Assembly (NCBI GenBank): GCA_036505215.1 | Contig: DASXTW010000085.1 | Span: 656 to 64,655, forward strand | Length of the DNA: 64,000 nucleotides | Direction: 5' to 3' | DNA from: Actinomycetota bacterium | GTDB taxonomy: Bacteria; Actinomycetota; UBA4738 | In this document: positions 20,464 through 40,959 of the stretch, one piece after another | How the letters are laid out: each line of letters starts with the position of its first letter | Numbering within the stretch: position 1 is the stretch's first letter | Translations under genes and position numbers: made by a program | The notes under the pieces: model-generated | Databases searched by the model: none | The model's input: the letters and a program-made list of their open reading frames with translations, nothing else | Told to the model about the DNA's origin: nothing

Positions 20464-23370
20464 TCAGCCCTTGACCTTGGCCACGAGCAGAGCCACGTCG
20501 TCCCGGGTGGCCTCCGGGCTGAACCCGACCAACGCGCGCTCGATCGCTTCCGCGATGCCTTTGGCGTCTTCCCCTCGGCAGGACCTGAGCACGGACTCCA
20601 AGCGGTCACGCCCGAAGATCTCGCCGCCCTCGCGGCGCTCCTCCAGGACGCCGTCGGTGAACAGCACCAACGCGTCACCATGATGCAGGTCGACGGCGCA
20701 GTCCGTCAGTTCAGGATCGTTGAAGATGCCGAGCAGGGCTCCAGGGCTGCCGGCGGCCTCCACCGACCCGTCCGACCTGAGGACGAGGGGGAGGGGGTGG
20801 CCTGCGACGCAGACTGTCAACCGGGCTCCGCTCTCATGCGGTTTCAGCCTGACGTAGCAAACGGTGCAGAAGATGTGGTCGGAGCGCTGCTGCATCACCG
20901 CCTGGTTAAGACGGCTGAGGATGCTGCTCGGCTTCCGCTCCTGCAGAGCCACTGCCCGCAGGGTGTGGCGAGCGAGGCTCGTGACGACGGCTGCCTCCAC
21001 GCCTTTCCCGCAGACGTCTCCGATGGTCAGGGCCCACGAGCCGTCTCCGGTGTCGAAGACGTCGTAGAAGTCCCCTCCGACCTCGTTGCCCTCGCCCGCC
21101 CACCGGTACCGGCCCTCGACCTCCAACCCGGAGATTTCCGGCAGTGCCGGCGGAAGGAGACTCTCCTGCAGCCGCGTCGCCACACGGCGAATCTCTTGGA
21201 GGAGCCTGGCATTGTCCACCGCCAGCGCCGCACGCCGGGCCACCTCTTGAGCGAAGACGAGGTCGCCTTCGTCATACCGGCGGCCTGATTCCGCCGACAC
21301 CAACGTGATGGCCCCCAGTGTGCGGCCCCGAGCCACCATGGGCACGACCATCGCCGACCGAAGTCCCAAACCCAGCACGATCTCCAGGAACCCGGGGTCC
21401 GGAGCGGACTCCACCAGCACGGACTCCGGAATCTCGGCGATCATCTCCGGCCGCCCCGTGCGGAGGACCTTGGGGACGCCGGTGGGGGCCTCCGGGTCGG
21501 GTGGATACCGGTTCCTGAGCTCCCTTGCCAACTTCACTTTCTCCGGGTCCACGTGGGTCACGGCGACCTGGCGGATGGAGCCATCCGGTTCGAGCATGTC
21601 GATCGAGCACCAGTCGGCGAGCTGGGGGACGACGAGCCGCGCCACTCCCGCCAACGTCTCCTCGAATCCCTCGATGGACGCGGCCATCAGAGGGCCCGCC
21701 TCGGCCAGGAACCGTTGAGCCTGATCCACCCGCTTGCGCTCCGTGATGTCCGCAACCACGCCGGTCATGGCCAGGACCTTGCCGGATTCGTCCTTGATGC
21801 ACAGGCCCCTGCCTTCGATCCAGCGGATCGAGCCGTCGGGCCATATCACCCGATGTTCAATCTGGAAATCCGAGCCGGACTCACGGGCCCGCTCGATCGT
21901 CTCCATGATCCACTCGCGCTCCTCGGGATGGAGCCGCTCCTGGTACTCCTCGAAGGTGCCTCCGAACGTGCCCGGGGAAAGCCCGAATATCTCCTCGAGG
22001 GTCTCGTCCCAGGCCACCGCCCCCGTAGCGATCTCGTAATGCCAGGTGCCGAGCCTGCCGGCCTCCAGCGCGAGGCGTAACCGCTCCCGACTCTCGCGAA
22101 GCCGTTCCTCAACCGTTCGCCGCAGCGTGATGTCGCGCACGAACCCCGTGAACATCGGCGGGCCGGGGAGATCGACCCGGGCGACCGTGAGCTCGATGGG
22201 GAATTCGGTGCCGTCTGCCCGCATGCCCGTGAACTCGAAGCGCTGGCCCAGGAGCGGACCCTCCCCCGTGGCCAGGAAGCGGGCCAGCCCGGCCCTGTGT
22301 CGTTCACGGAGCTCCGGCGGCACGATGAGCTGGGCCATCTCCCTTCCAATGGCATCGTCCCGGAGGTAGCCGAAGGTTCTTTCCGCCGCGGGATTGAACT
22401 CGAGGACCTTGCCTTCGTGATCAATGGTGATGATGCAGTCGAGGGCGGCCTCCACGATGGCGGACTTCCTGGCCTCACTCTCCAGGACGGCCCGCTCGGC
22501 CTCCTTGCGTTCCATGAACTGGCCGATCTGGCTGCCGATCACCGAGAGAGCCAGAAGGAGATCGGCGTCCGGCTCCTGGATGTCCCGGCTGAAGAACTCG
22601 AGGACGCCCAGGACCTCCCTCCCGAAGAGGATGGGAAAACCAAAGGCTGCGTGGATGCCTTCCCGGCTGGCGCTGGGCGCCCTGGGGAAGTTGTCGTCCT
22701 TCGTCACGTCAGGGATCCAGGCAGAACGGGCTGCCGCCCACACCCGGCCTGGAAGGCCCACGCCCGGAGGAAAGAGCGATTCGCGAGTCACCCGTTCGAA
22801 CTCGGCAACCGCAGTGCTCGGGGCATGCCATACGTCGACGCACCGAATGCCCCCGAGTTCCTGGTCGACCCGCCATAGTGCTCCCATGGGCCACTCCAAG
22901 TTCACGCAGATCGCCTGAAGAATGGTCGGGGCGGCCTCGGCGAGAGACGAGGCCTCGGCCAGAGCTCGGGTTACGGCGGTCCGGGCGGCGAGGAGTCGCT
23001 CCTGGCGCACCCGGTCGGTGATGTCCACCGACACGCTGACGATCCCCTCGATGGCTTCGTCGGCGCCTCGGAGGGGGGAGAGCGTGGTGAAGGAGAGCAT
23101 GTGACTCCCATCCTTCCGCCGGATCTGGAACTCGCCTTCCCAGCCGTGCCCCGCCAGGACGGATGCCCGGATGTCGTCTGCCCGGCTCACGTCGCTCGGG
23201 GAGACCAACAGTTCTCGGAAATCCCGGCCCAGCGCCTCGTCCCTGGTCCAGCCGAACATGGCCTCGGCGGCCCGGTTCCAGTGAGTTGTCGCTCCCGTCA
23301 AGTCGGTGGCGGTAACCGCCGCATGGACTTGATCGAGGAGATATGCCTCGAATCCAGCCGAGGGCAGCAT
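20464..23370 (-). CDS. PAS/GAF multi-sensor PP2C-type serine phosphatase (RsbU/SpoIIE-like)
   Basis: 968 aa. Alternating PAS and GAF segments, then a PP2C domain with the metal-binding motif (GGDFYDV ... LTIGDVCGKGVEAA). Confidence 0.85.
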   Translation of the reverse strand: MLPSAGFEAYLLDQVHAAVTATDLTGATTHWNRAAEAMFGWTRDEALGRDFRELLVSPSDVSRADDIRASVLAGHGWEGEFQIRRKDGSHMLSFTTLSPLRGADEAIEGIVSVSVDITDRVRQERLLAARTAVTRALAEASSLAEAAPTILQAICVNLEWPMGALWRVDQELGGIRCVDVWHAPSTAVAEFERVTRESLFPPGVGLPGRVWAAARSAWIPDVTKDDNFPRAPSASREGIHAAFGFPILFGREVLGVLEFFSRDIQEPDADLLLALSVIGSQIGQFMERKEAERAVLESEARKSAIVEAALDCIITIDHEGKVLEFNPAAERTFGYLRDDAIGREMAQLIVPPELRERHRAGLARFLATGEGPLLGQRFEFTGMRADGTEFPIELTVARVDLPGPPMFTGFVRDITLRRTVEERLRESRERLRLALEAGRLGTWHYEIATGAVAWDETLEEIFGLSPGTFGGTFEEYQERLHPEEREWIMETIERARESGSDFQIEHRVIWPDGSIRWIEGRGLCIKDESGKVLAMTGVVADITERKRVDQAQRFLAEAGPLMAASIEGFEETLAGVARLVVPQLADWCSIDMLEPDGSIRQVAVTHVDPEKVKLARELRNRYPPDPEAPTGVPKVLRTGRPEMIAEIPESVLVESAPDPGFLEIVLGLGLRSAMVVPMVARGRTLGAITLVSAESGRRYDEGDLVFAQEVARRAALAVDNARLLQEIRRVATRLQESLLPPALPEISGLEVEGRYRWAGEGNEVGGDFYDVFDTGDGSWALTIGDVCGKGVEAAVVTSLARHTLRAVALQERKPSSILSRLNQAVMQQRSDHIFCTVCYVRLKPHESGARLTVCVAGHPLPLVLRSDGSVEAAGSPGALLGIFNDPELTDCAVDLHHGDALVLFTDGVLEERREGGEIFGRDRLESVLRSCRGEDAKGIAEAIERALVGFSPEATRDDVALLVAKVKG

Positions 23371-29801: not shown

Positions 29802-30560
29802 TCACGCCAGGACCACCTCCACCCCGGCCTCCTCGAGCGCCTGCCGGTCGGACGGGCCCAGGCCCGCGTCGGTGACCAGCGCATCGACCTCCTCGATCGA
29901 CGCGAAGCGCACGGCGTCCTCTTCGCCCACCTTGGTGTGGTCGGCGATCACGACGACCTGCTGCGCCGCCCGGCACATCGATCGCTTCACCGCCGCCTCG
30001 CTGGGGTCGGGTGTCGAAAGGCCACGCTCGAGGGTCAGCCCATTGGTCCCGATGAACGCCACGTCCACCCGCAGGTCGGCCAGCTCGCGCAGCGCCCAGT
30101 CGTCGACGTGGGCGAGGGTGCGTCCGCGGACGCGGCCTCCGATCACGTACAGCTGGAGGTTTCGTCGAGCGGCCAGCTCCAGCCCCACGGGCAGAGAATT
30201 CGTGAAGACCGTGAGCTCACGGTCGGGAAATACCTGGGCTAGCGCGAGGGTCGTCGTCCCCGCGTCCAGGAGCACCGTGCCGCGGTCGGGCACGAACGAG
30301 AGCGCGGCGGATGCTATCCGGCCCTTCTCACTCGCCATCGACGCGGCCTTCTCGGCGATCGCCGGCTCCGCCCGGAAACGCTCGGTGGGGATGGCTCCCC
30401 CGTGGACGCGACGAAGGACGTTACGGCGCTCCAGGTCCGTCAGGTCTCGCCGGATGGTCTCCGGGGTCACTTCGAACCGGTTTGCGAGTTCCAAGACGTC
30501 GCCCCGACCGTTCTGCCGGACCAGCACGGCGATCTCTTGGCGTCTCTCCTCCCCGTACAT
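29802..30560 (-). CDS. DeoR family transcriptional regulator (FruR-like)
   Basis: N-terminal DeoR HTH (ELANRFEVTPETIRRDL) and a DeoR C-terminal sugar-binding domain. Confidence 0.85.
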   Translation of the reverse strand: MYGEERRQEIAVLVRQNGRGDVLELANRFEVTPETIRRDLTDLERRNVLRRVHGGAIPTERFRAEPAIAEKAASMASEKGRIASAALSFVPDRGTVLLDAGTTTLALAQVFPDRELTVFTNSLPVGLELAARRNLQLYVIGGRVRGRTLAHVDDWALRELADLRVDVAFIGTNGLTLERGLSTPDPSEAAVKRSMCRAAQQVVVIADHTKVGEEDAVRFASIEEVDALVTDAGLGPSDRQALEEAGVEVVLA

Positions 30561-30970
30561 GCCACCTCCGAGTCTGCCCGGTTAGTTCCGAGTCCGTGGG
30601 ATTCTGCCCGATTGCCCGCCTCGTTGTCAAGGCCCAGACAGAAACAAAAGTCGAAGCCCCCCTCGACGGACGAGGCCAGGCCCCGAGACGACGGGACAGG
30701 CCCGGGGCAAAGGCTCAGAGGAACCGGCCGTCGTTCGACTGTAGCTGGACGTTTGAAACCAAGCCGAACTGGGTACCCGCCTCGCACCTTATCGGTGGGG
30801 GACATGTGCGGGTTCGGGGAGTTGCGACCCCTGGTTCAGGGACGATCGGCGATCGAGAGGGGGCTCCAAACGGCGGGCGTTCCCCGCTCGGAGTCGTCGG
30901 TGATTTCCGTGCGGACCCGACGGCTCAGGCCCGTGGCGTCGCGCATCTTTCGTCTGAAGCGCTCGCCACG

Positions 30971-32674
30971 GTGGTCCTCTTCGACGAGCACCTGAGCCAC
31001 TGCGCCACCACGGCGGATGTGATCTCGGCCGCGGTGGGGCCCGGTCTCGAAGCCTTCGGGGCAAAGGCTGCGGTTATCGGATTGACCGACTTCCGGCTCC
31101 GCCTCGAGCCCGTCGTCGGCAGTCCGGGGATCGAGGGCTTCGCTGCCCGATGCGCCGAACTTGCCCTGGACGCGCCGCTGCCGATCACCGAGACCATCCG
31201 CACCGGCAGGCCGGTCGGCCAGCGACCCCTTGCGGATGGCCTCATGGGAGAAGGATCCCCGACCGATCTCGGAGCGGTTCGCGAGTGTACCCTCCCTATC
31301 CTCGGCACTCGGGGAGTTGTTGGAGCCCTCTGGCTCTTCCTCGGTCCGGACGACCCGCCGATTGACGATGCGCTTCTGCCCGTTCTGATCGGCCGGCTGG
31401 GTGCGGCCATCGACAGAGCCCGCATACTGGAGTCGGAGCGGCGGATGCGCGCTCGGGCCGAGTGGTCTGCGGCCAGGTTGTCGCGACTGCAATCGCTGAC
31501 TTCGGGTCTTTCGGCGGCGCTCGGCCCTGTGGACGTCGCCGACGTGGTCATGACCCATGCCCTCGCCGAGCTTGGCGCGACCGGAGGCACGTGCTACATG
31601 CTGGCCGAGGACCGAACCCTGCGGCCGGTGCGCTCCATCGGGGACGAGAGGGCGTCCACCAACGCGATCTCGATTACGAACGACGACCCACTGGGGACGA
31701 TCCTCAAGCGGAGCGTGGTGGTCGTCCTTCCGCCCGAGTCCGCCGCCTCTGCCGGACGCGATGACGGCAGTCTCAAGGCAGTCGTTCCGCTCGCGATCAG
31801 AGGCGAGGTCCTCGGCGCCATCGAGTTGATCTTCCCCCGAGACAAGGATCTGGACGGAGACCTCCGGTCGTTCCTGGCCGCTCTTGGGACCCAGTGCGCC
31901 CAGGCCGTCGAGCGTGCGCGCTTGTACGCCCAGCGCGCGAGGGAGGCTCATGTGTTGCAGGCCTCCCTGATGCCACCTGCCCTCCCCAGCATCCCCGGGC
32001 TCGATATCGCCGCGGCGTACCGTCCGTTCGGAGATGGAACCGTCGTTGGCGGGGACTTCTATGACGTCTATGCCCTCGGAGAAGGCCGATGGGGCCTCGT
32101 GGTCGGTGACGTGTCCGGCAAGGGAATCGAAGCGGCCGCGATCACGGCCCTCGCGCGCCACACGACTCGGGCCGCGGCGCTTCTTGGTATGGGGCCCGCC
32201 GACGTCTTGCAGACCTTGAATCGAGTGATGCTCTCGGAGCCCCTCGGCGAACGCTTCTGCACGATCGTCCACGGCATCCTCGAGCCGTCCGCGGAGGGTG
32301 TTGCCGTCACGCTGAGTCTCGGCGGGCATCCACGTCCGCTCCTGCTGGATCGACGGAAGGGAACCGTGCGCGCGGTGGGAAGACCTGGCACCGCTGTAGG
32401 AGTGCTGGCCGATCCCACGCTGCTCGAAACGCGCCTGACGCTGCACAGCGGAGACGTCCTCGTCTTCTTCACCGACGGGTGCGTCGACTTCCATGCCGAG
32501 GGCCGGACCACGTCCGACGAGACCGTGCTGCTCGGCGTGCTTCGCGAGCACGCCGAGGAAGATGCCGGCCAACTCACGAAACGTCTCGAAGATGAGGTCT
32601 TGAATTCGAAGGGAGGACCGAGCGCGGACGACGTCGCGTTGCTCGTCATGCGAGCGCGGAACGATGAACCCTAG
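30971..32674 (+). CDS. GAF-domain PP2C serine phosphatase (SpoIIE/RsbU family)
   Basis: PP2C motifs ([22 protein letters not shown]) at the C-terminus and a GAF-like N-terminus. The longer ORF overlaps the divergent DeoR gene, so an in-frame GTG at 30971 is proposed and the start is uncertain. Confidence 0.7.
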
Positions 32675-32731: not shown

Positions 32732-35700
32732 ATGAAGGCTCGTGCCAGAGGCACGGAAGAAGGATCGCCGCGCGCGCCGGCGAAGAAGCGGGCCGCCCGA
32801 CCTGCGTCGAAGAACGGCCACAGCGAAGACGGCGACCTCGTGCTCCAAGAGCTGCTCGATGCGCTCGTCGAGCTCAAGCGGGGCGACTTCCGCGTGCGAC
32901 TGCCCGCCCGACGCTCGGGTCTGCCGGGCAGGATCGGGGGGGCGTTCAACGATTGCGTGGAACTGATCGATGGGACGACGCGAGAGATCGACAGGGTGTC
33001 CAGGCTGGTGGGTCGCGAAGGCCGCGTGTCGGAGCGAATCGTCCTGACCGGGGCCGAGGGGACCTGGGCGGCCCGAGCAGCCGCGATGAACGGGCTCATC
33101 GACGATCTGATCCGCCCGATGACGGAGATCGCCCGGGTGATCGAGGCCGTTGCGCTCGGCGATCTCTCCCAGAGGGTGGCGCTCAGCATCCACGGGAGAC
33201 CGATCAGGGGCGAGTATCTACGGATCGGGAAGGCCGTCAACGCCATGGTCGACCAGCTCTCCTCGTTCGGCGCCGAGGTCAGCCGCGTGGCGAAGGAAGT
33301 TGGTACGGATGGCAAGCTCGGCGGCCAGGCGAAGGTCAGAGGCCTCTCCGGCAGGTGGAAGGACCTGACCGACAACGTCAACCTGATGGCCTCCAACCTC
33401 ACTGCCCAGGTGCGCGACATCGCTCGGGTCGCCACGGCCGTGGCGAGGGGGGACCTTTCCCAAAAGATCACCGTCGACGTCAAGGGCGAGATCGTCGAGC
33501 TGAAGAACACCATCAACACAATGGTCGACCAGCTCTCCTCGTTCGCCGACGAGGTGACGCGCGTCGCGCGCGAGGTGGGCACCGAGGGGAAGCTCGGGGG
33601 TCAGGCCAACGTGAAGGGCGTGTCGGGCACGTGGAGAGACCTCACGGACAGCGTCAACCTCATGGCGTCGAACCTGACGAGTCAGGTCCGGAACATCGCG
33701 CAGGTAGCGAGCGCGGTCGCCCGGGGGGATCTGTCCCAGAAGATCACCGTCGGAGCCGAGGGGGAGGTCGCCGCGCTTGCCGACACCATCAACTCGATGA
33801 CCGACACGCTGCGCGTCTTCGGCGACGAAGTCACGCGCGTTCGCGCGCGAGGTCGGTACCGAGGGCAGGCTTGGTGGACAGGCCGAAGTCCCCGGGGTCG
33901 CGGGGACGTGGAAGGACCTGACCGAGAGCGTGAACTCTATGGCCTTCAACCTCACCGCCCAGGTCCGCAACATCGCCCAGGTGGCAACGGCGGTCGCCAA
34001 GGGCGATCTTTCGCAGAAGATCACGGTCGACGTCCGCGGCGAGATCCTCGAGCTGAAGGACACCATCAACACGATGGTGGATCAGCTTTCATCGTTTGCG
34101 GACGAGGTCACCCGAGTCGCTCGCGAGGTGGGCACCGAGGGGAACCTCGGCGGCCAGGCGCAGGTGAAGGGCGTCTCAGGAACGTGGAAAGACTTGACCG
34201 ACAACGTCAACTTCATGGCGTCCAACCTGACCAGTCAGGTGCGCGACATCGCGCGGGTGACGACCGCGGTGGCCAAGGGCGACCTCTCGCAGAAGATCAC
34301 CGTGGACGTCAAGGGCGAGATCCTCGAGCTCAAGGACACCATCAACACGATGGTCGACCAGTTGAGGTCGTTCGCCGATGAGGTGACGCGCGTCGCGCGC
34401 GAGGTCGGAACGGAGGGCAGGCTGGGTGGCCAGGCTGAGGTATTCGGTGTCTCGGGAACATGGAAGGGCCTGACCGACAGCGTGAACTTCATGGCCTCGA
34501 ACCTGACCGACCAGGTGTGGAACATCGCCCAGGTGGCCACGGCCGTCGCTCGTGGCGACCTGTCGCAGAAGATCACGGTCGATGTCCGCGGCGAGATCCT
34601 CGAGCTGAAAGACACCATCAACACGATGGTGGATCAGCTTCGAGCGTTCGCCGACGAGGTCACCCGCGTCGCGCGCGAGGTGGGGACCGAAGGCAAGCTG
34701 GGGGGTCAGGCGGAGGTGTTGGGCGTCGCAGGCACGTGGAAGGACCTCACCGACAACGTCAACTTCATGGCGTCCAACCTGACCAGCCAGGTGCGCGACA
34801 TCGCACGGGTGACGACCGCGGTGGCCAAGGGCGACCTCTCGCAGAAGATCACCGTCGACGTCCGGGGCGAGATCCTCGAGCTCAAGAACACCATCAACAC
34901 CATGGTGGACCAGCTCTCCTCGTTCGCCGACGAGGTCACCCGCGTGGCGCGCGAAGTGGGCACCGAAGGCAAGCTCGGGGGCCAGGCACAGGTCCCCGGT
35001 GTCGGGGGCACCTGGAAGGGCCTCACGGAGAATGTGAATTCCATGGCGTCGAACCTGACGGGCCAGGTGCGGACATCGCCCAGGTCACCACGGCGGTTGC
35101 CCGTGGCGACCTGTCGCACAAGATCACCGTGGACGTCAAGGGGGAGATCCTGGAGCTCAAGAACACCATCAACACCATGGTGGACCAGCTCTCCTCCTTC
35201 GCCGACGAGGTGACTCGGGTCGCCCGCGAGGTGGGGACCGAGGGAAAGCTCGGCGGCCAGGCCCACGTACCCGGCGTATCGGGGACGTGGAAGGACCTGA
35301 CCGACAACGTGAACTCCATGGCCGGAAACCTGACCGCGCAGGTCCGGAACATCGCTCAGGTGGCGACGGCCGTCGCTCGCGGGGATCTGTCGCAGAAGGT
35401 CACGGTCGATGTACGAGGGGAGATCCTGGAGCTGAAAGACACGATCAACACCATGGTCGATCAGCTCTCCTCATTCGCCGACGAGGTCACCCGGGTGGCG
35501 CACGAGGTGGGGACGGAGGGGAAGCTCGGCGGGCAGGCCGAGGTCGAGGACGTCTCTGGTACCTGGCGCCATCTGACCGAGAGCGTCAACCAGCTTGCCC
35601 AGAACCTGACGACTCAGGTCCGAGCGATCGCCGACGTGGCAACTGCCGTTACCCAGGGCGACCTCACGCGTAGCATCGACGTGGAGGCCCGGGGGGAAGT

Positions 35701-37819
35701 CTCGGAGCTCAGGAACAACATCAACTACATGATCCGCAACCTTCGTGAGACCACACAGAAGAGCGCGGAGCAGGACTGGCTCAAGACGAACCTCGCCCGG
35801 ATCTCCCGTTTGATGCAAGGACAGCGAGACCTGCGGGAGCTCTCCCAATTGATCATGTCCGAGGTCACCCCGGTGGTGTCCGCGCAACATGGCGCGTTCT
35901 TCATGGCCGGTGCCGAGGGGAGCGACCTCGAGCTGAGACTGATCGCCTCGTACGCGTACAAGTCCCGGAAGAAAGCGTCCAACCAGTTTCGTCTGGGCGA
36001 GGGTCTCGTCGGCCAGGCGGCAGTCGAAAAGAAGCCAATACTGGTAACCGATCCCCCCGAGGGCTACATCCGGGTTTCCTCCGGCATCGGGGAAGGACGG
36101 CCCGCCGCGATCGTCGTGCTCCCAGTCGTCTTCGAAGAACAGGTCCTGGCCGTCATCGAGCTCGCCTCGTTCAAGCCGTTCACGGAAGCCAGCTTGATGT
36201 TCCTCGAACAGCTGGTCGAGACGATCGGTGTCGTTCTCAACGGCGTTATTGCGAACATGCGAACCGAGGAGCTGCTCGCCGAGTCCCAGCGACTGGCCCA
36301 GGAGCTCCAGAGCCAATCCATGGAGCTGCAGCACGGACAGGAGAGGCTGCGGCAGACGAACGCGGAGCTCGAGGAGAAGGCACGCCAGTTGGAGGAGCAG
36401 AACCGCAGCATCGAGCTCAAGAACCGCGAGATCGAGATCGCGAGAAAGGGCTTGGAAGAGAAGGCGCGGCAGCTTGCTCTGGCCTCCAAGTACAAGTCCG
36501 AATTCCTCGCGAACATGTCCCACGAGCTGCGCACTCCTCTCAACAGCCTGATGGTCCTCGCGCAGCTCCTCGCTTCGAATCCCGATGGCACTCTCTCTTC
36601 CCGGCAGGTGGAGTTCGCCGACACGATCTACGATGCGGGGAAGGATCTTCTTGGCTTGATCAACGACATCTTGGACCTGAGTAAGGTCGAGGCCGGACGG
36701 CTCGACATCACCCCCGCCGACGTGGCGGTCGCCGACATCCGCGAGTCGATCGAGCAGGGATTCCGGCCACTCGCCGAGCAAAAGGGGCTCTCCCTCGACG
36801 TATCAATCGGAGCGGAGTGTCCGCCCTCCTTCGAAACCGATCTGCAACGGCTTCAGCAGATCCTGAACAACCTGCTGTCCAACGCGGTCAAGTTCACCAA
36901 CGAAGGCGGTGTTACCGTTCGGATCGATCGAGCACCGGACGCCCTCGGCTACTCCACCTCTCAGCTCGAAAAAGCTGGAACCGTCCTCGCCTTCACGGTC
37001 AGCGACACGGGGATCGGGATCGCCCCGGACCAGCTCGATGCGATCTTCGAAGCGTTCCGCCAGGCGGACGGGACCGCCAGCCGCCGCTTCGGAGGCACCG
37101 GCCTCGGTCTGTCCATCAGCCGGGAGGTGGCGCGCCTGCTCGGCGGAGAGATCCGCGTCGAGAGCAGCGTCGATGAAGGCAGCATGTTCACGCTGTACCT
37201 CCCACGGAGCTACGTTCCAGTCGAGCCTGCGAGCCGCGAGACAGCGCGCCCCTCTCTGCACGAGCAGGACAAGGCCGCGTCGATCGAAGCACGCGACGGG
37301 CGCAGCCGCGAACTGCCAGAGCAGTCGGAGCCATTGAGCGTCGTCCTCTTCGAGCCGCAGCCGAGCGACGGGCAAGATCTCGCAGATTTCCTTCGAGCGC
37401 GGAACGGCATGCCGCTCACCACCGGAGGCGGGAAGGAGGAGCTGCTGGCCGGGAAGCAGGTCCTCATCGTCGACGATGACATCCGGAACGTCTTCGCACT
37501 CACGAACGCGCTCGAAAGCCAGGGCTCGACCGTGCTGTTCGCGGAGAACGGCCGCGAGGCGCTGGATGTCCTGTATCGCAACCCCGAGATCGACCTCGTC
37601 TTGATGGACATCATGATGCCCGACATGGACGGGTACGAGACGACGAGGACGATCCGGAGCACCCCTCAGTTCGCGGAGCTCCCGATCATCGCAGTCACGG
37701 CCAAGGCCATGAAAGGGGACCGCGAAAAGACATTGGCCGCGGGGGCCACCGACTACATCGCCAAGCCCCTGGACGTGGACGAGCTGCTGGCCAAGGTTCG
37801 GGCCCGTCTGCTCGGATAA
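32732..37819 (+). CDS. Giant hybrid sensor histidine kinase: poly-HAMP array (nine or ten 92-aa units), GAF, coiled coil, HisKA, HATPase and C-terminal REC. The reading frame is interrupted by two compensating frameshifts (+1 near 33840, -1 near 35073)
   Basis: Three overlapping ORFs (32732..34381, 33930..35213, 34460..37819) all encode the same repeat in the correct frame once joined. The repeat is [92 protein letters not shown]. H-box ([10 protein letters not shown]), ATPase motifs (GGTGLGLSI) and REC motifs (VLIVDDD ... [13 protein letters not shown]) are present. Confidence 0.8.
33110..35770 (+). repeat. Tandem 276-bp (92-codon) coding repeats, about 9.5 units; units starting at 33386, 33662, 33939, 34215, 34491, 34767, 35043 and 35318 are near-identical
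   Basis: The ATG of each MASNLT unit recurs at 276 +/-1 nt spacing. The 277 and 275 nt spacings coincide with the two frameshifts. Confidence 0.9.
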
Positions 37820-37822
37820 CCG

Positions 37823-38974
37823 ATGGCGACCATCCTGCTGGTCGATGATCGAGCCGAGAATCTGCGCGCGCTCGAGGCCGTGCTCGAACCTCTCGGACAC
37901 ACCCTGCTCAGGGCGCAGTCTGCCGACGAGGCGCTCGCGTGCCTCCTGAGGGAGGAGGTCGCTCTCATCCTCCTCGACGTGATGATGCCGGGGCTCGACG
38001 GATTCGAGACAGCAGAGCTCATCAAGCAGAGAGAGAGAACCCGCGACATCCCGATCATTTTCCTGACGGCCATCAACCAGGCCATCGAACATCACCTCAG
38101 GGGATACGAAGTGGGCGCAGTGGATTACATCAACAAGCCATTCGACGCCCACATCCTCCGCTCGAAGGTATCCGTGTTCCTCGATCTCAACGAGAAGCGC
38201 GACCTGTTGCGGGCGCAGACCGAAGAGCTCCGGAAACGGCTGAACGAGCGGGACCGAGCGCAGCGCGCGCTGGTGCGCCGGACCGCCGAGCTGGCGCGAT
38301 CCAACAGGGAGCTCGACCAGTTGGTTCAGATCGCCTCTCACGACATCCGTGAGCCACTTGACACCATGGCGGGATTCCTCGAGATCATCGCTCAGGAATC
38401 CGCCCGTTCGGCCGGGGACGATGTCCGGCTCCTGCTCACCCGGGCAATCGCCCAGGTCGAGCGCATGCGCGACGCGATCGACAAACTGGTCGGGTCGGCG
38501 AGCTCTGGCCAGGGGCTCGAAGCGAGCGAGGTCGTGGCTTTCGACAAGGTCCTCGACCAGGCGCTCGACGATCTCGAGAGCCCATTGGCGGAGAACGGCG
38601 CGCGCGTCGTCCGATCGCCACTCCCAGCCGTACGCGGAGACTTCTGGCAGCTCGTCGAGTTGGTCGAGGTCCTGATCGAACACGCCCTCAAGCTTCGAGG
38701 GGACGAAGCTCCCGAAGTGCGAATCCACGCGAGTGAAGGCTCGACGGAGCATCTGATCTCGATCGGCAACAACGGGGTTGCGATCGACCCGCGTGATGCC
38801 GCTCGGCGCTTCACCGTGTTCGCCACGATGGGCTCCCCGTCCGGTGGGATCCTCGACGTCGGTCTGGTCACGTGCCGCAGGATCATCGAGCGGCACGGTG
38901 GGCGAATCTGGCTCGAATCTCAGCCGGGAAGCGGATCCACGGTCTTCTTCACGCTTCCCCCAGCCGAGCACTGA
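37823..38974 (+). CDS. Hybrid REC-histidine kinase (receiver, HisKA, HATPase)
   Basis: REC motifs (ILLVDD ... ILLDVMMPGLDG), H-box (SHDIREPL) and an ATPase C-terminus. Starts 4 nt after the poly-HAMP kinase stop. Confidence 0.85.
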   Translation: MATILLVDDRAENLRALEAVLEPLGHTLLRAQSADEALACLLREEVALILLDVMMPGLDGFETAELIKQRERTRDIPIIFLTAINQAIEHHLRGYEVGAVDYINKPFDAHILRSKVSVFLDLNEKRDLLRAQTEELRKRLNERDRAQRALVRRTAELARSNRELDQLVQIASHDIREPLDTMAGFLEIIAQESARSAGDDVRLLLTRAIAQVERMRDAIDKLVGSASSGQGLEASEVVAFDKVLDQALDDLESPLAENGARVVRSPLPAVRGDFWQLVELVEVLIEHALKLRGDEAPEVRIHASEGSTEHLISIGNNGVAIDPRDAARRFTVFATMGSPSGGILDVGLVTCRRIIERHGGRIWLESQPGSGSTVFFTLPPAEH

Positions 38975-39735
38975 TGTTCACCCTCCTGGTGGTCGACGAC
39001 GATGCAGATTCCCGGTTGCTCGTTGCCCACGCGCTCAGGGGATCGGAGACGTTCCAGATCATCGGCGAGGCGGCGGGGGCCGAAGATGCCGTTTCCCTGG
39101 CCTCATCGTGGCATCCCGACATCGTGATGTTGGATCCGGTGCTGGTGGGAGCAGACGGCCTGTGGGCGCTGCCCCGCGTCCGCGAAGCTGCTCCGGGAAC
39201 GAAGGTCGTGCTCCATTCATCGTTCCCATCATCAGAGCTTCGATTTGCCGCCTTGTCCGGGGGAGCCGTCGGATATCTCGAGAAGAGTCGCCCCCGACTG
39301 ACCCTCGGCGACGACCTGCTTGCCGTGTGCGGTCTGCTCGATGTCGTCGAGGCTGGGATCAACGAGGCAAAGGCGCGCCTTGGTCCGAACCTCCAGACGC
39401 CACGCCTGGCGAGACGCTTCGTCAAGCAAGCGCTCGATCGATGGGGAGTGAGGAGCGAGGTCGAGCTGGTCGAGCTCCTCGTGAGCGAACTCGTCACCAA
39501 CTCCATCGTCCACGCCCGGTCCGACGTGGAAGTCTCCGTTACCGTTGCTTCGGACCTCGTACGCGTGGCCGTGTTCGATTCCAGCCTCGAACCGCCGATC
39601 CGTAGGGCGGTACGACCAGACGGGGCATCGGGTCGTGGCCTCCTCATGCTCGACGCGCTCTGTTCAGCCTGGGGAAGCGACGTCACGCCCGGGGGGAAGA
39701 GCGTGTGGTTCGAGATCAAGAACGAATTCCGCTGA
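38974..39735 (+). CDS. Receiver (REC) domain fused to an RsbW-like GHKL ATPase/serine kinase domain
   Basis: REC motifs (LLVVDDD ... IVMLD) and a C-terminal anti-sigma-factor-type HATPase_c (ELVTNSIVHA ... GRGLLMLDAL). The start overlaps the upstream stop in a TGATG junction. Confidence 0.7.
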   Translation: MFTLLVVDDDADSRLLVAHALRGSETFQIIGEAAGAEDAVSLASSWHPDIVMLDPVLVGADGLWALPRVREAAPGTKVVLHSSFPSSELRFAALSGGAVGYLEKSRPRLTLGDDLLAVCGLLDVVEAGINEAKARLGPNLQTPRLARRFVKQALDRWGVRSEVELVELLVSELVTNSIVHARSDVEVSVTVASDLVRVAVFDSSLEPPIRRAVRPDGASGRGLLMLDALCSAWGSDVTPGGKSVWFEIKNEFR

Positions 39736-39771: not shown

Positions 39772-40959
39772 ATGGCCCAGCTCAAAGCCAGTGAACGGGC
39801 GAGCCTCCCCGACAGCGCCTTCGCCTACGTCGACTCTCGAGGCCGGCGACGGCTGCCGATCCACGACGAGTCTCACGTGCGGAACGCGCTCGCTCGGTTC
39901 AATCAGGTCTCCTTCGAAGATGATGCGGCCCGGGAGCGCGCCCGCAAGCGGCTGCTGAACGCCGCGAAAAGGTACGGGATCGTGCCCGTGGGGTTCATCG
40001 ACGGGCAGCTCCGATCGGAGCGCAGGCACGCAGCGGCCGGCCGCCTGGTGATCGAGCTCGGTCGGATGGGCGCACCCGGCGAGCTCGAGCAGCAACTGCG
40101 AAGCGCGCTGCGGGATCCCACCCTTGCCGTTCTGCACTGGTCGGAAGCGGCCGGGTCGTACCTGGACGGCGCGGGCAAGCCGGTCCCGCTGCCTGCTGAT
40201 CAGGAGCAGCGGGTGGTGACCTATCTCGAGCGCCAGGGCCGGCCGATGACCGCGATCGTGCACGATCCGGCCGTCCTCGACGATCCGGATCTCACCGAGA
40301 CCGTGCTTGCCGCTGTGCGCTTCGTCATCGAGAAAGACCGGCTCCACGGCCAGGTCCAGGCCCGATCGACCAATGCCGCGACGCTCCCCACCGGCTTCGT
40401 CACCTTCCTGTTGACCGACATCGAGGGCTCCACGGCTCTTCTCAGGCAGCTGGGCGACCGCTACGCGGGCCTGCTGAACGACGTCCGCAGGATCGTTCGG
40501 CAGGCCGTGCTGCGGGCCGGAGGCCGCGCGGTCGATGCCCACGCCGACGAGTTCTTCGCGGTCTTCGAGCGCGTGGTCCCTGCCATCGAGGCGGCCATCT
40601 CCATCCAGCGCACGATGAGCGAGCGGACCTGGCCCGACGATCTGCAATGCCGGGTCCGTGCCGGAATCCACAGCGGCAGTCCCACCCTGACCGACACCGG
40701 GTACATCGGCCTGCCCGTCCACACGGCAGCTCGGGTCTGCTGGGCGGCCCACGGCGGCCAGATCGTCGTCTCCGGCGAGACCAAAAGAGCGGTCGAGGGA
40801 TCCGTGCCGGCCGGCGTCCGCTTCCGAAGCCTCGGCCGACATCGCTTCCCCGGGCTGACTCAGCCGGAAGCGCTCTTCCAGGTCGAGGCCGACGGACTCC
40901 TCGCCGACTTCCCGCCTCTACGGATGGGAGCCGCCTCCTCCACCGAGCCACGCCGTTAG
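39772..40959 (+). CDS. Class III adenylate/guanylate cyclase with an N-terminal domain of unknown function
   Basis: C-terminal cyclase catalytic motifs (FVTFLLTDIEGSTAL, GIHSGSPT, HTAARV). Confidence 0.8.
   Translation: MAQLKASERASLPDSAFAYVDSRGRRRLPIHDESHVRNALARFNQVSFEDDAARERARKRLLNAAKRYGIVPVGFIDGQLRSERRHAAAGRLVIELGRMGAPGELEQQLRSALRDPTLAVLHWSEAAGSYLDGAGKPVPLPADQEQRVVTYLERQGRPMTAIVHDPAVLDDPDLTETVLAAVRFVIEKDRLHGQVQARSTNAATLPTGFVTFLLTDIEGSTALLRQLGDRYAGLLNDVRRIVRQAVLRAGGRAVDAHADEFFAVFERVVPAIEAAISIQRTMSERTWPDDLQCRVRAGIHSGSPTLTDTGYIGLPVHTAARVCWAAHGGQIVVSGETKRAVEGSVPAGVRFRSLGRHRFPGLTQPEALFQVEADGLLADFPPLRMGAASSTEPRR

Follow-up and report, generated by a model that had tools for sequence, protein, structure and literature searches.

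An Actinomycetota hybrid histidine kinase gene with a ten-module poly-HAMP array and two frameshifts

Kinase-associated poly-HAMP arrays were described by Coles et al. (2026, Protein Sci) in 4778 kinases with the organization poly-HAMP-GAF-kinase-REC (PMC13446029). In this family a non-canonical HAMP of type C and a canonical HAMP of type D2 are joined in repeated di-HAMP modules, which are followed by a GAF domain, the DHp/CA kinase core and at least one receiver; and a HAMP of type D1 is always found in the first array position (PMC13446029). The non-canonical HAMPs have little sequence in common with the canonical ones but form the same four-helix bundle (PMC13446029). Crystal structures exist for two fragments of AskA of Myxococcus xanthus, 9TRK with six HAMPs and 9TRJ with four, and the spread of the family includes fungi and Amoebozoa (PMC13446029). 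Here we describe a gene of this kind located at 32732-37819 on the forward strand of a 64,000-nucleotide (nt) stretch of an Actinomycetota genome assembly (contig DASXTW010000085.1, positions 656 to 64,655; hereafter the window, to which all positions refer).

Marcos-Torres et al. (2020) had already used the term group III hybrid histidine kinases for the bacterial proteins Amb07 of Sorangium, AskA and AskB (PMC7643160), and OsaA, a protein of 1829 amino acids (aa) involved in osmoadaptation, has more than ten HAMPs and a receiver and lacks a transmembrane segment (PMC9739842, PMC10117811). On the fungal side, CaNik1p contains four concatenated HAMP pairs of 92 aa and a single HAMP (PMC3848655). 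The window kinase very probably belongs with AskA/AskB, Amb07 and OsaA in the kinase-associated poly-HAMP family, as a hybrid histidine kinase that is soluble and cytoplasmic.

HAMP array, kinase core and family membership

After two frame corrections the gene comprises 1695 codons; as written it is divided among three overlapping open reading frames (ORFs). Residues 93-1012 of the corrected protein form ten units, each exactly 92 aa long. Tandem Repeats Finder reported a 276-nt period at 33237-35556 (8.4 copies, 77% matches, score 2307), and 3′ of this repeat the coding sequence is without repetition. The original prediction, a model's reading of the bare sequence, had counted nine or ten such units, and its consensus is the one found here, circularly permuted. 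The array starts with a D1 HAMP (about aa 38-92, 32843-33007), followed by module 1 (aa 93-184, 33008-33283), which is divergent and corresponds in the alignment to HAMP2-HAMP3 of AskA in 9TRK, modules 2 and 3 (aa 185-368, 33284-33835) and modules 4 to 10 (aa 369-1012, 33836-35767). Module 10, which closes the array, is divergent as well and carries the exit helix NLRETTQKS. This makes 21 HAMPs, one D1 HAMP and ten C-D2 di-HAMP modules, where about 20 had been expected.

Units 2-9 are 72-92% identical to each other in protein and 71-88% in DNA sequence. The first and last units are divergent: unit 10 shares 54-60% of its residues with units 2-9, and unit 1 shares 12-22% with the rest. The Gly-x-Trp motif (G[TR]W) and GDL are present in all ten modules, and LGGQA and EVGTEG (or a one-residue variant of the latter) in modules 2-10. 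Among units 2-9 the synonymous divergence (dS) is 0.4-0.9 and dN/dS is 0.07-0.17; therefore, the modules are old copies, each under purifying selection.

Pfam analysis of the corrected protein gave HAMP (E=4e-103) and HAMP_2 (1e-91), each over ten stretches. A HAMP profile had been expected on each half of the unit, and this was borne out for the canonical half (NLT..MVDQL), which alone was matched by Pfam HAMP at E=4e-11, but not for the other half, which alone had no Pfam match at E<=1. We predict that the unmatched half is a non-canonical (type C) HAMP, since the layout of AskA is identical and the half is homologous to non-canonical HAMPs in the AskA crystals, with more than 80% identity to the AskA residues that form non-canonical HAMP bundles in 9TRK. 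Other Pfam matches in the array (ATG17_like, DUF1759, Laminin_II, UPF0184 and others) had zero significant stretches and were dismissed as repeat or coiled-coil noise. It is very improbable that the array is a DNA-binding region of the helix-turn-helix (HTH) type. AskB and AskA did bind the mrpC promoter in vitro (PMC7643160), and PF01418 appears in the precomputed Pfam matches of many homologs; but no HTH family reached E<=0.01 in the window protein, save RHH_6 without a matching stretch, and the same residues are HAMP helices in crystal structures (PMC13446029).

The canonical half of module 3 (33560-33835, aa 277-368) is atypical, a SMTDTLRVF-type canonical HAMP replacing the consensus VDVxGEILELK..MVDQL. 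The same signature stands at the same position in an intact ortholog from an Actinomycetota metagenome-assembled genome (MAG), locus L003, and in 16 metagenome orthologs; thus the irregularity is a conserved trait of this clade.

Downstream of the array, the order GAF, HisKA, HATPase and REC given in the original prediction was confirmed by Pfam matches to GAF_2, HisKA, HATPase_c and Response_reg in this sequence. The GAF domain (aa 1031-1169, 35822-36238; GAF_2 E=4e-20, GAF E=9e-12) and a coiled coil of about 85 aa separate the array from the H-box. The HisKA/DHp domain (aa 1255-1322, 36494-36697) carries the phospho-acceptor His1264 (36521-36523) in SHELRTPLN. N, G1, F and G2 boxes are present in the HATPase_c catalytic domain (aa 1370-1492, 36839-37207), and the receiver (aa 1577-1690, 37460-37801) has its acceptor Asp1626 at 37607-37609 as well as Lys1678, so that the catalytic and phospho-acceptor residues are complete. 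No transmembrane segment was found, the highest Kyte-Doolittle 19-mer scoring 1.92 in a charged GAF strand, and Pfam gave no MCPsignal match in the window kinase.

The corrected protein thus combines the features of the family: at least five HAMPs in C and D2 di-HAMP modules, a D1 HAMP at the start, GAF-DHp-CA-REC after the array, and a soluble protein. Residues 12-314 are collinear with residues 23-327 of the AskA chain in 9TRK (E=1e-108), internal modules match at E=4e-91, and this structure, about 80% identical over the modules, spans the first six HAMPs of the window array; the array also matches 9TRJ residue by residue. In a neighbour-joining tree the kinase core of the window falls inside the bacterial poly-HAMP clade in 99/100 bootstraps. 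At least 8000 homologs with the same Pfam set were found at E<=1e-10. Most of the best 120 have lengths of 2000-2900 aa. These 120 belong to Acidobacteriota, Planctomycetota, Proteobacteria, Actinomycetota, Gemmatimonadota, Verrucomicrobiota and myxobacteria, and are called 'HAMP domain-containing protein' or 'histidine kinase' where the source gives a name.

The original prediction had also called the HAMP rod unusually long. Counted by LGGQA anchors, the window has 9 modules, and among the best 116 homologs the median is 13 (range 9-19), although long arrays are favoured in this sample because it was taken by bit score; and AskA has the same 21-HAMP layout (PMC13446029). Longer arrays being common among the best homologs, the rod is not unusually long.

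The nearest genomes are two Actinomycetota MAGs with 89% identity in the GAF-kinase core. One of them, L003, encodes an intact ortholog of 1399 aa (L003:3861-8060) with the same start and N-terminus and seven modules, whose first 728 residues align without a gap with the window kinase at 86% identity. The number of modules therefore varies among close relatives, with 10 in the window and 7 in L003. The 16 metagenome orthologs that carry the SMTDTLRVF module 3 are more distant, and the complete ones (L083, L084, L095 and L097) have 1932-2002 codons.

Two frameshifts in the array

Without correction, the kinase gene is covered by an ORF at 32732-34381, an open frame at 33801-35213 and an ORF at 34460-37819. 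From 32732 the repeat is legible in frame 'mod 2' as far as about 33840; it then continues in frame 'mod 0', from about 33841 until 35073, and is back in frame 'mod 2' up to the stop at 37819. These switches coincide with phase switches of the GC-rich third codon positions in a GC3 phase plot. At the first site, one extra T (cgcgTtcgcgcg) is found at 33841, where the window reads cgcgTtcgcg and all other units and every ortholog read cgcgtcgcg; L003 and 16/16 metagenome orthologs read through this site in frame. At the second, one base is missing between 35073 and 35074 (gtgcgg^acatcgcc), where the units read QVR[N/D]IA, and the frame returns to 'mod 2'. Deletion of T 33841 and insertion of one base after 35073 give a single product of 1695 aa with zero internal stops. 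As written, the two compensating 1-nt frameshifts leave about 411 array codons out of frame. For this reason the gene is, with about equal likelihood, a very recent pseudogene or one that carries a consensus error inside the repeat, and the kinase gene in the window may be inactivated.

We give slightly less than an even chance to the view that both frameshifts are genuine and the locus a freshly inactivated pseudogene in the population, where a sensor that the relatives keep would have been lost very recently. In its favour, the second site recurs ungapped in L002, a contig from another JGI sample (3300036864) that is identical to window 34997-39043 except for 1 mismatch over 4047 nt; but this contig begins just 76 nt before the site, within the repeat, and may stem from the same reads. 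Other long genes of the window (968, 592, 563 and 734 aa) are single intact ORFs, and therefore the assembly is not generally indel-prone. A de Bruijn join of repeat units would preserve the frame; a graph-assembly chimera is thus an unlikely cause of the frameshifts, since joins through shared k-mers keep the phase. On the opposite side, dN/dS against the L003 ortholog is 0.10 within the shifted block and 0.135 in the part upstream, with no relaxation of selection visible; the kinase gene has no further lesion, and at site 1 the frame is unbroken both in L003 and in each of the 16 related contigs. No match was obtained in a metagenome scan spanning this site, and exact-product look-ups found nothing for the gene upstream, any of the three broken ORFs or one distant window gene, in a collection that contains the short sibling contigs L001, L002, L099 and L100 but not the source contig. 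The 16 orthologous contigs (75-80% DNA identity) were obtained by scanning with a 24-mer taken from the atypical module 3; none of them comes from the same population, so that they do not confirm site 1.

It is hardly credible that the split is functional and yields three separate products, namely an N-terminal HAMP stub, a HAMP rod encoded by the frame-0 ORF, and a kinase with a short array that begins at an internal start. Frame 0 is indeed open at 33801-35213, with a GTG at 33930, and the downstream frame is open from 34460; but each fragment would carry 47-205 out-of-frame residues, and neither L003 nor any of the 16 metagenome orthologs is split in this way.

Within the frameshifted block, Trp replaces the otherwise invariant Arg of QVRxIA at aa 596 in module 6 (about 34516-34518). 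The change is non-conservative, and the counterpart module of L003 has Arg.

Neighbouring genes and proposed signalling

The kinase gene is preceded by a GAF-SpoIIE (PP2C) phosphatase gene (30311-32674, +; Pfam SpoIIE E=2.5e-39, GAF_2), 78% identical to its L003 homolog. The true start of this gene is probably near 30905, because the L003 homolog aligns only from residue 199. A REC-HisKA-HATPase_c kinase gene (37823-38974, +) starts 3 nt past the poly-HAMP stop, and its own stop overlaps by 1 nt with a REC-HATPase_c_2 (RsbW-like) gene (38974-39735, +). The REC-kinase is kept in L003 and L004 (76% identity), the RsbW-like protein is 82% identical in both, and the gene order phosphatase, poly-HAMP kinase, REC-kinase and REC-RsbW-like protein is common to the two loci. 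A homolog of the REC-kinase also lies downstream in Paenibacillus (L005) and in most Pedobacter-type loci; none was found downstream in the Caballeronia locus L009. The gene of a DUF6582 protein (39772-40959, +), with a weak adenylate/guanylate-cyclase-like C-terminus (E=5.5e-5), is possibly the last of the operon. Pfam showed no HPt domain among the genes of the immediate operon.

The conserved operon, with its PP2C phosphatase, REC-kinase and REC-RsbW-like protein, suggests a phosphorelay that feeds a partner-switching module. Following the model proposed for the family (PMC13446029), the kinase would be a parallel dimer in which the 21 stacked HAMPs form one continuous four-helix rod, and alternating canonical and non-canonical HAMPs would relay a signal along it by opposite axial rotations of their helices (PMC13446029). 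The relayed signal would set the balance between kinase and phosphatase activity of DHp/CA, and His1264 would pass a phosphoryl group to Asp1626. Judged from gene context, output would go to the translationally linked REC-kinase and REC-RsbW-like protein and, together with the upstream GAF-PP2C phosphatase, the phosphorelay may lead into a partner-switching stress response like OsaABC/SigB osmoadaptation in Streptomyces.

Several points weigh against assigning the window gene to the family as a working kinase with this output. Its reading frame is broken twice and the product as encoded consists of three fragments; with 1-nt frameshifts at 33841 and about 35073, an intact expressible gene was not found. 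The sequence reveals neither ligand nor stimulus, none of the operon genes was identified as encoding a STAS protein or sigma factor, partner-switching output is read from gene order only, and the likeness to OsaA is taken from published descriptions and not from sequence.

Two features of the surroundings may be added. The longest GAF-SpoIIE ORF overlaps, in its first part (30311-30905, +), a divergent gene for a DeoR regulator (29802-30560, -). About 9 kb upstream, a second large PP2C phosphatase of 968 aa is encoded at 20464-23370 (-), with the order PAS, GAF, two PAS, GAF and SpoIIE, and the region is rich in sensors of the partner-switching type.

Fungal group III kinases and other described relatives

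Fungal proteins were compared by means of database fragments of fungal genes, Os-1/Nik1 sequence serving as bait only. The set held the Mortierellaceae poly-HAMP fragments P0196 and P0201, P0236 (852 aa, ending in a group III H-box), P0260 (340 aa, of like kind), P0254 of Paraglomus, the NIK1-annotated P0255, and the osmosensor cores P0263 and P0259 of Elasticomyces and Hortaea. The fungal-type fragments align with the window array in register and ungapped at 63-80% identity, and their internal units have 67-80% identity with the window consensus. By BLASTP, the last three modules of the window match P0236 at 68-71% over 269-275 aa (E=1e-130) and P0260 at 63% over 241 aa (E=3e-105), and in both the collinearity extends through the divergent terminal HAMP and the exit helix (NLRETTQKS versus NLRESLQRN). 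In P0236, P0254 and P0260 the last HAMP is joined to the H-box within about 25 residues, with no GAF domain. These fragments align collinearly and then enter the H-box directly; the statement in the original prediction that the motifs and the 92-aa unit are those of the paired HAMPs of fungal group III kinases was therefore correct, the pairs of CaNik1p also being 92 aa long (PMC3848655), as was its remark that the fungal proteins lack the GAF domain.

The units of P0196 (Linnemannia) and P0201 (Mortierella) are 70-80% identical to the window array and the one internal unit of P0260 is 67% identical. Mortierellaceae host bacterial endosymbionts, so contamination or transfer is possible for P0196 and P0201.

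The tree of DHp and CA domains, a crude one built on database fragments, comprised 77 sequences over 224 columns with 100 bootstraps: 25 bacterial poly-HAMP kinases (the window among them), 6 group III cores of fungi, 11 relatives of the fungal bait, and 35 generic hybrid kinases that were the best matches to the window core from outside the family. Bacterial poly-HAMP kinases were monophyletic in 99/100 and fungal group III kinases in 100/100 bootstraps, but a joint clade of the two was found in 0/100. The mean core identity was 42.6% between poly-HAMP and fungal kinases and 42.7% between poly-HAMP and generic hybrid kinases; the window core itself was 40-42% identical to group III cores, the same as to generic hybrid kinases. 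The kinase core thus lends no positive support to direct whole-gene ancestry of the fungal proteins, and the suggestion of the original prediction that this gene is a candidate ancestor of the fungal family was not upheld.

It is quite unlikely that the complete Nik1/Os-1 group III kinase of fungi, array and kinase as one, descends from the window gene or is directly related to it. The ungapped array similarity of 63-80%, including the terminal divergent HAMP and exit helix, and the identical 92-aa pair length (PMC3848655) speak for such descent, and common ancestry of eukaryotic poly-HAMP kinases is considered possible by Coles et al. (PMC13446029). Moreover, bacterial arrays evolve about 2-3 times slower than their cores (80-90% versus 53-66% identity), and therefore a core identity of 42% beside an array identity of 67-80% could reflect vertical descent with more divergence than the tree can resolve. 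For the same reason the discordance between array and core was rejected as proof of domain shuffling: within bacteria, too, the array is far more conserved than the core, and the fungal values fit a continuation of this trend. Standing against whole-gene ancestry are the missing joint clade, the fungal cores being no nearer than generic hybrid kinases, and the GAF domain of the window kinase, which the fungal-type fragments do not have. In addition, thousands of bacterial members in many phyla are equally good candidates, so that the window gene is not singled out as the ancestor. We also regard as unlikely that array and core have separate histories, the eukaryotic family having arisen when a bacterial-type array was grafted onto a different hybrid-kinase core.

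The window kinase, as a poly-HAMP hybrid kinase of the AskA type, is a correctly read further member of a published family and would not surprise a specialist. The kind of gene is not new, since both the family and its fungal link had been published (PMC13446029, PMC7643160). The locus has little weight as a discovery, the architecture, the distribution (4778 kinases in NCBI), the crystal structure and the kinship with fungicide-target kinases all being on record. It adds an Actinomycetota example with ten old, individually constrained modules, a case of variation in module number among close relatives (10 versus 7), and a conserved operon suggesting partner-switching output; and its frameshifts call for care in the automated annotation of kinase genes rich in repeats.

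Among described systems, poly-HAMP proteins of the Aer2 or chemoreceptor type (HAMP types A/B) share with the window kinase concatenated canonical and non-canonical HAMPs and solubility. However, the match is weak (3VOL, E about 1e-5) and their output is a methyl-accepting domain and not a kinase; an independent origin of the two kinds of array has been proposed (PMC13446029). Fungal group III kinases (Nik1, Os-1, Hik1, Bos1 and TcsC) are alike in the 92-aa di-HAMP module, the terminal HAMP with its exit helix, solubility and the order HisKA-HATPase-REC. They differ in having 4-6 pairs, no GAF domain and a core outside the poly-HAMP clade (0/100), they signal through Ypd1/Ssk1 to the HOG mitogen-activated protein kinase pathway, and they are the target of phenylpyrrole and ambruticin fungicides.

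By its published descriptions, OsaA (SCO5748) of Streptomyces coelicolor resembles the window kinase, both being soluble hybrid kinases of actinobacteria that combine a receiver with more than ten HAMPs, and OsaA adjoins a regulator that modulates SigB activity (PMC9739842, PMC10117811). OsaB consists of a receiver and a coiled coil, whereas the genes downstream of the window kinase encode a REC-histidine kinase and a REC-RsbW-like protein; the phenotype described for OsaA is mild. AskA (MXAN_0712, Q1DEE3) has the same organization as the window kinase, namely a D1 HAMP and ten C-D2 modules (21 HAMPs), GAF, DHp/CA and REC without a transmembrane segment. The two differ in host, Myxococcota versus Actinomycetota, in the frameshifts of the window copy and in the partner-switching-type genes that neighbour it. 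Core identity between the window and family members other than AskA is 53-66%; and many arrays have been described with near-identical modules, whereas those of the window differ from each other at synonymous sites (dS 0.4-0.9).

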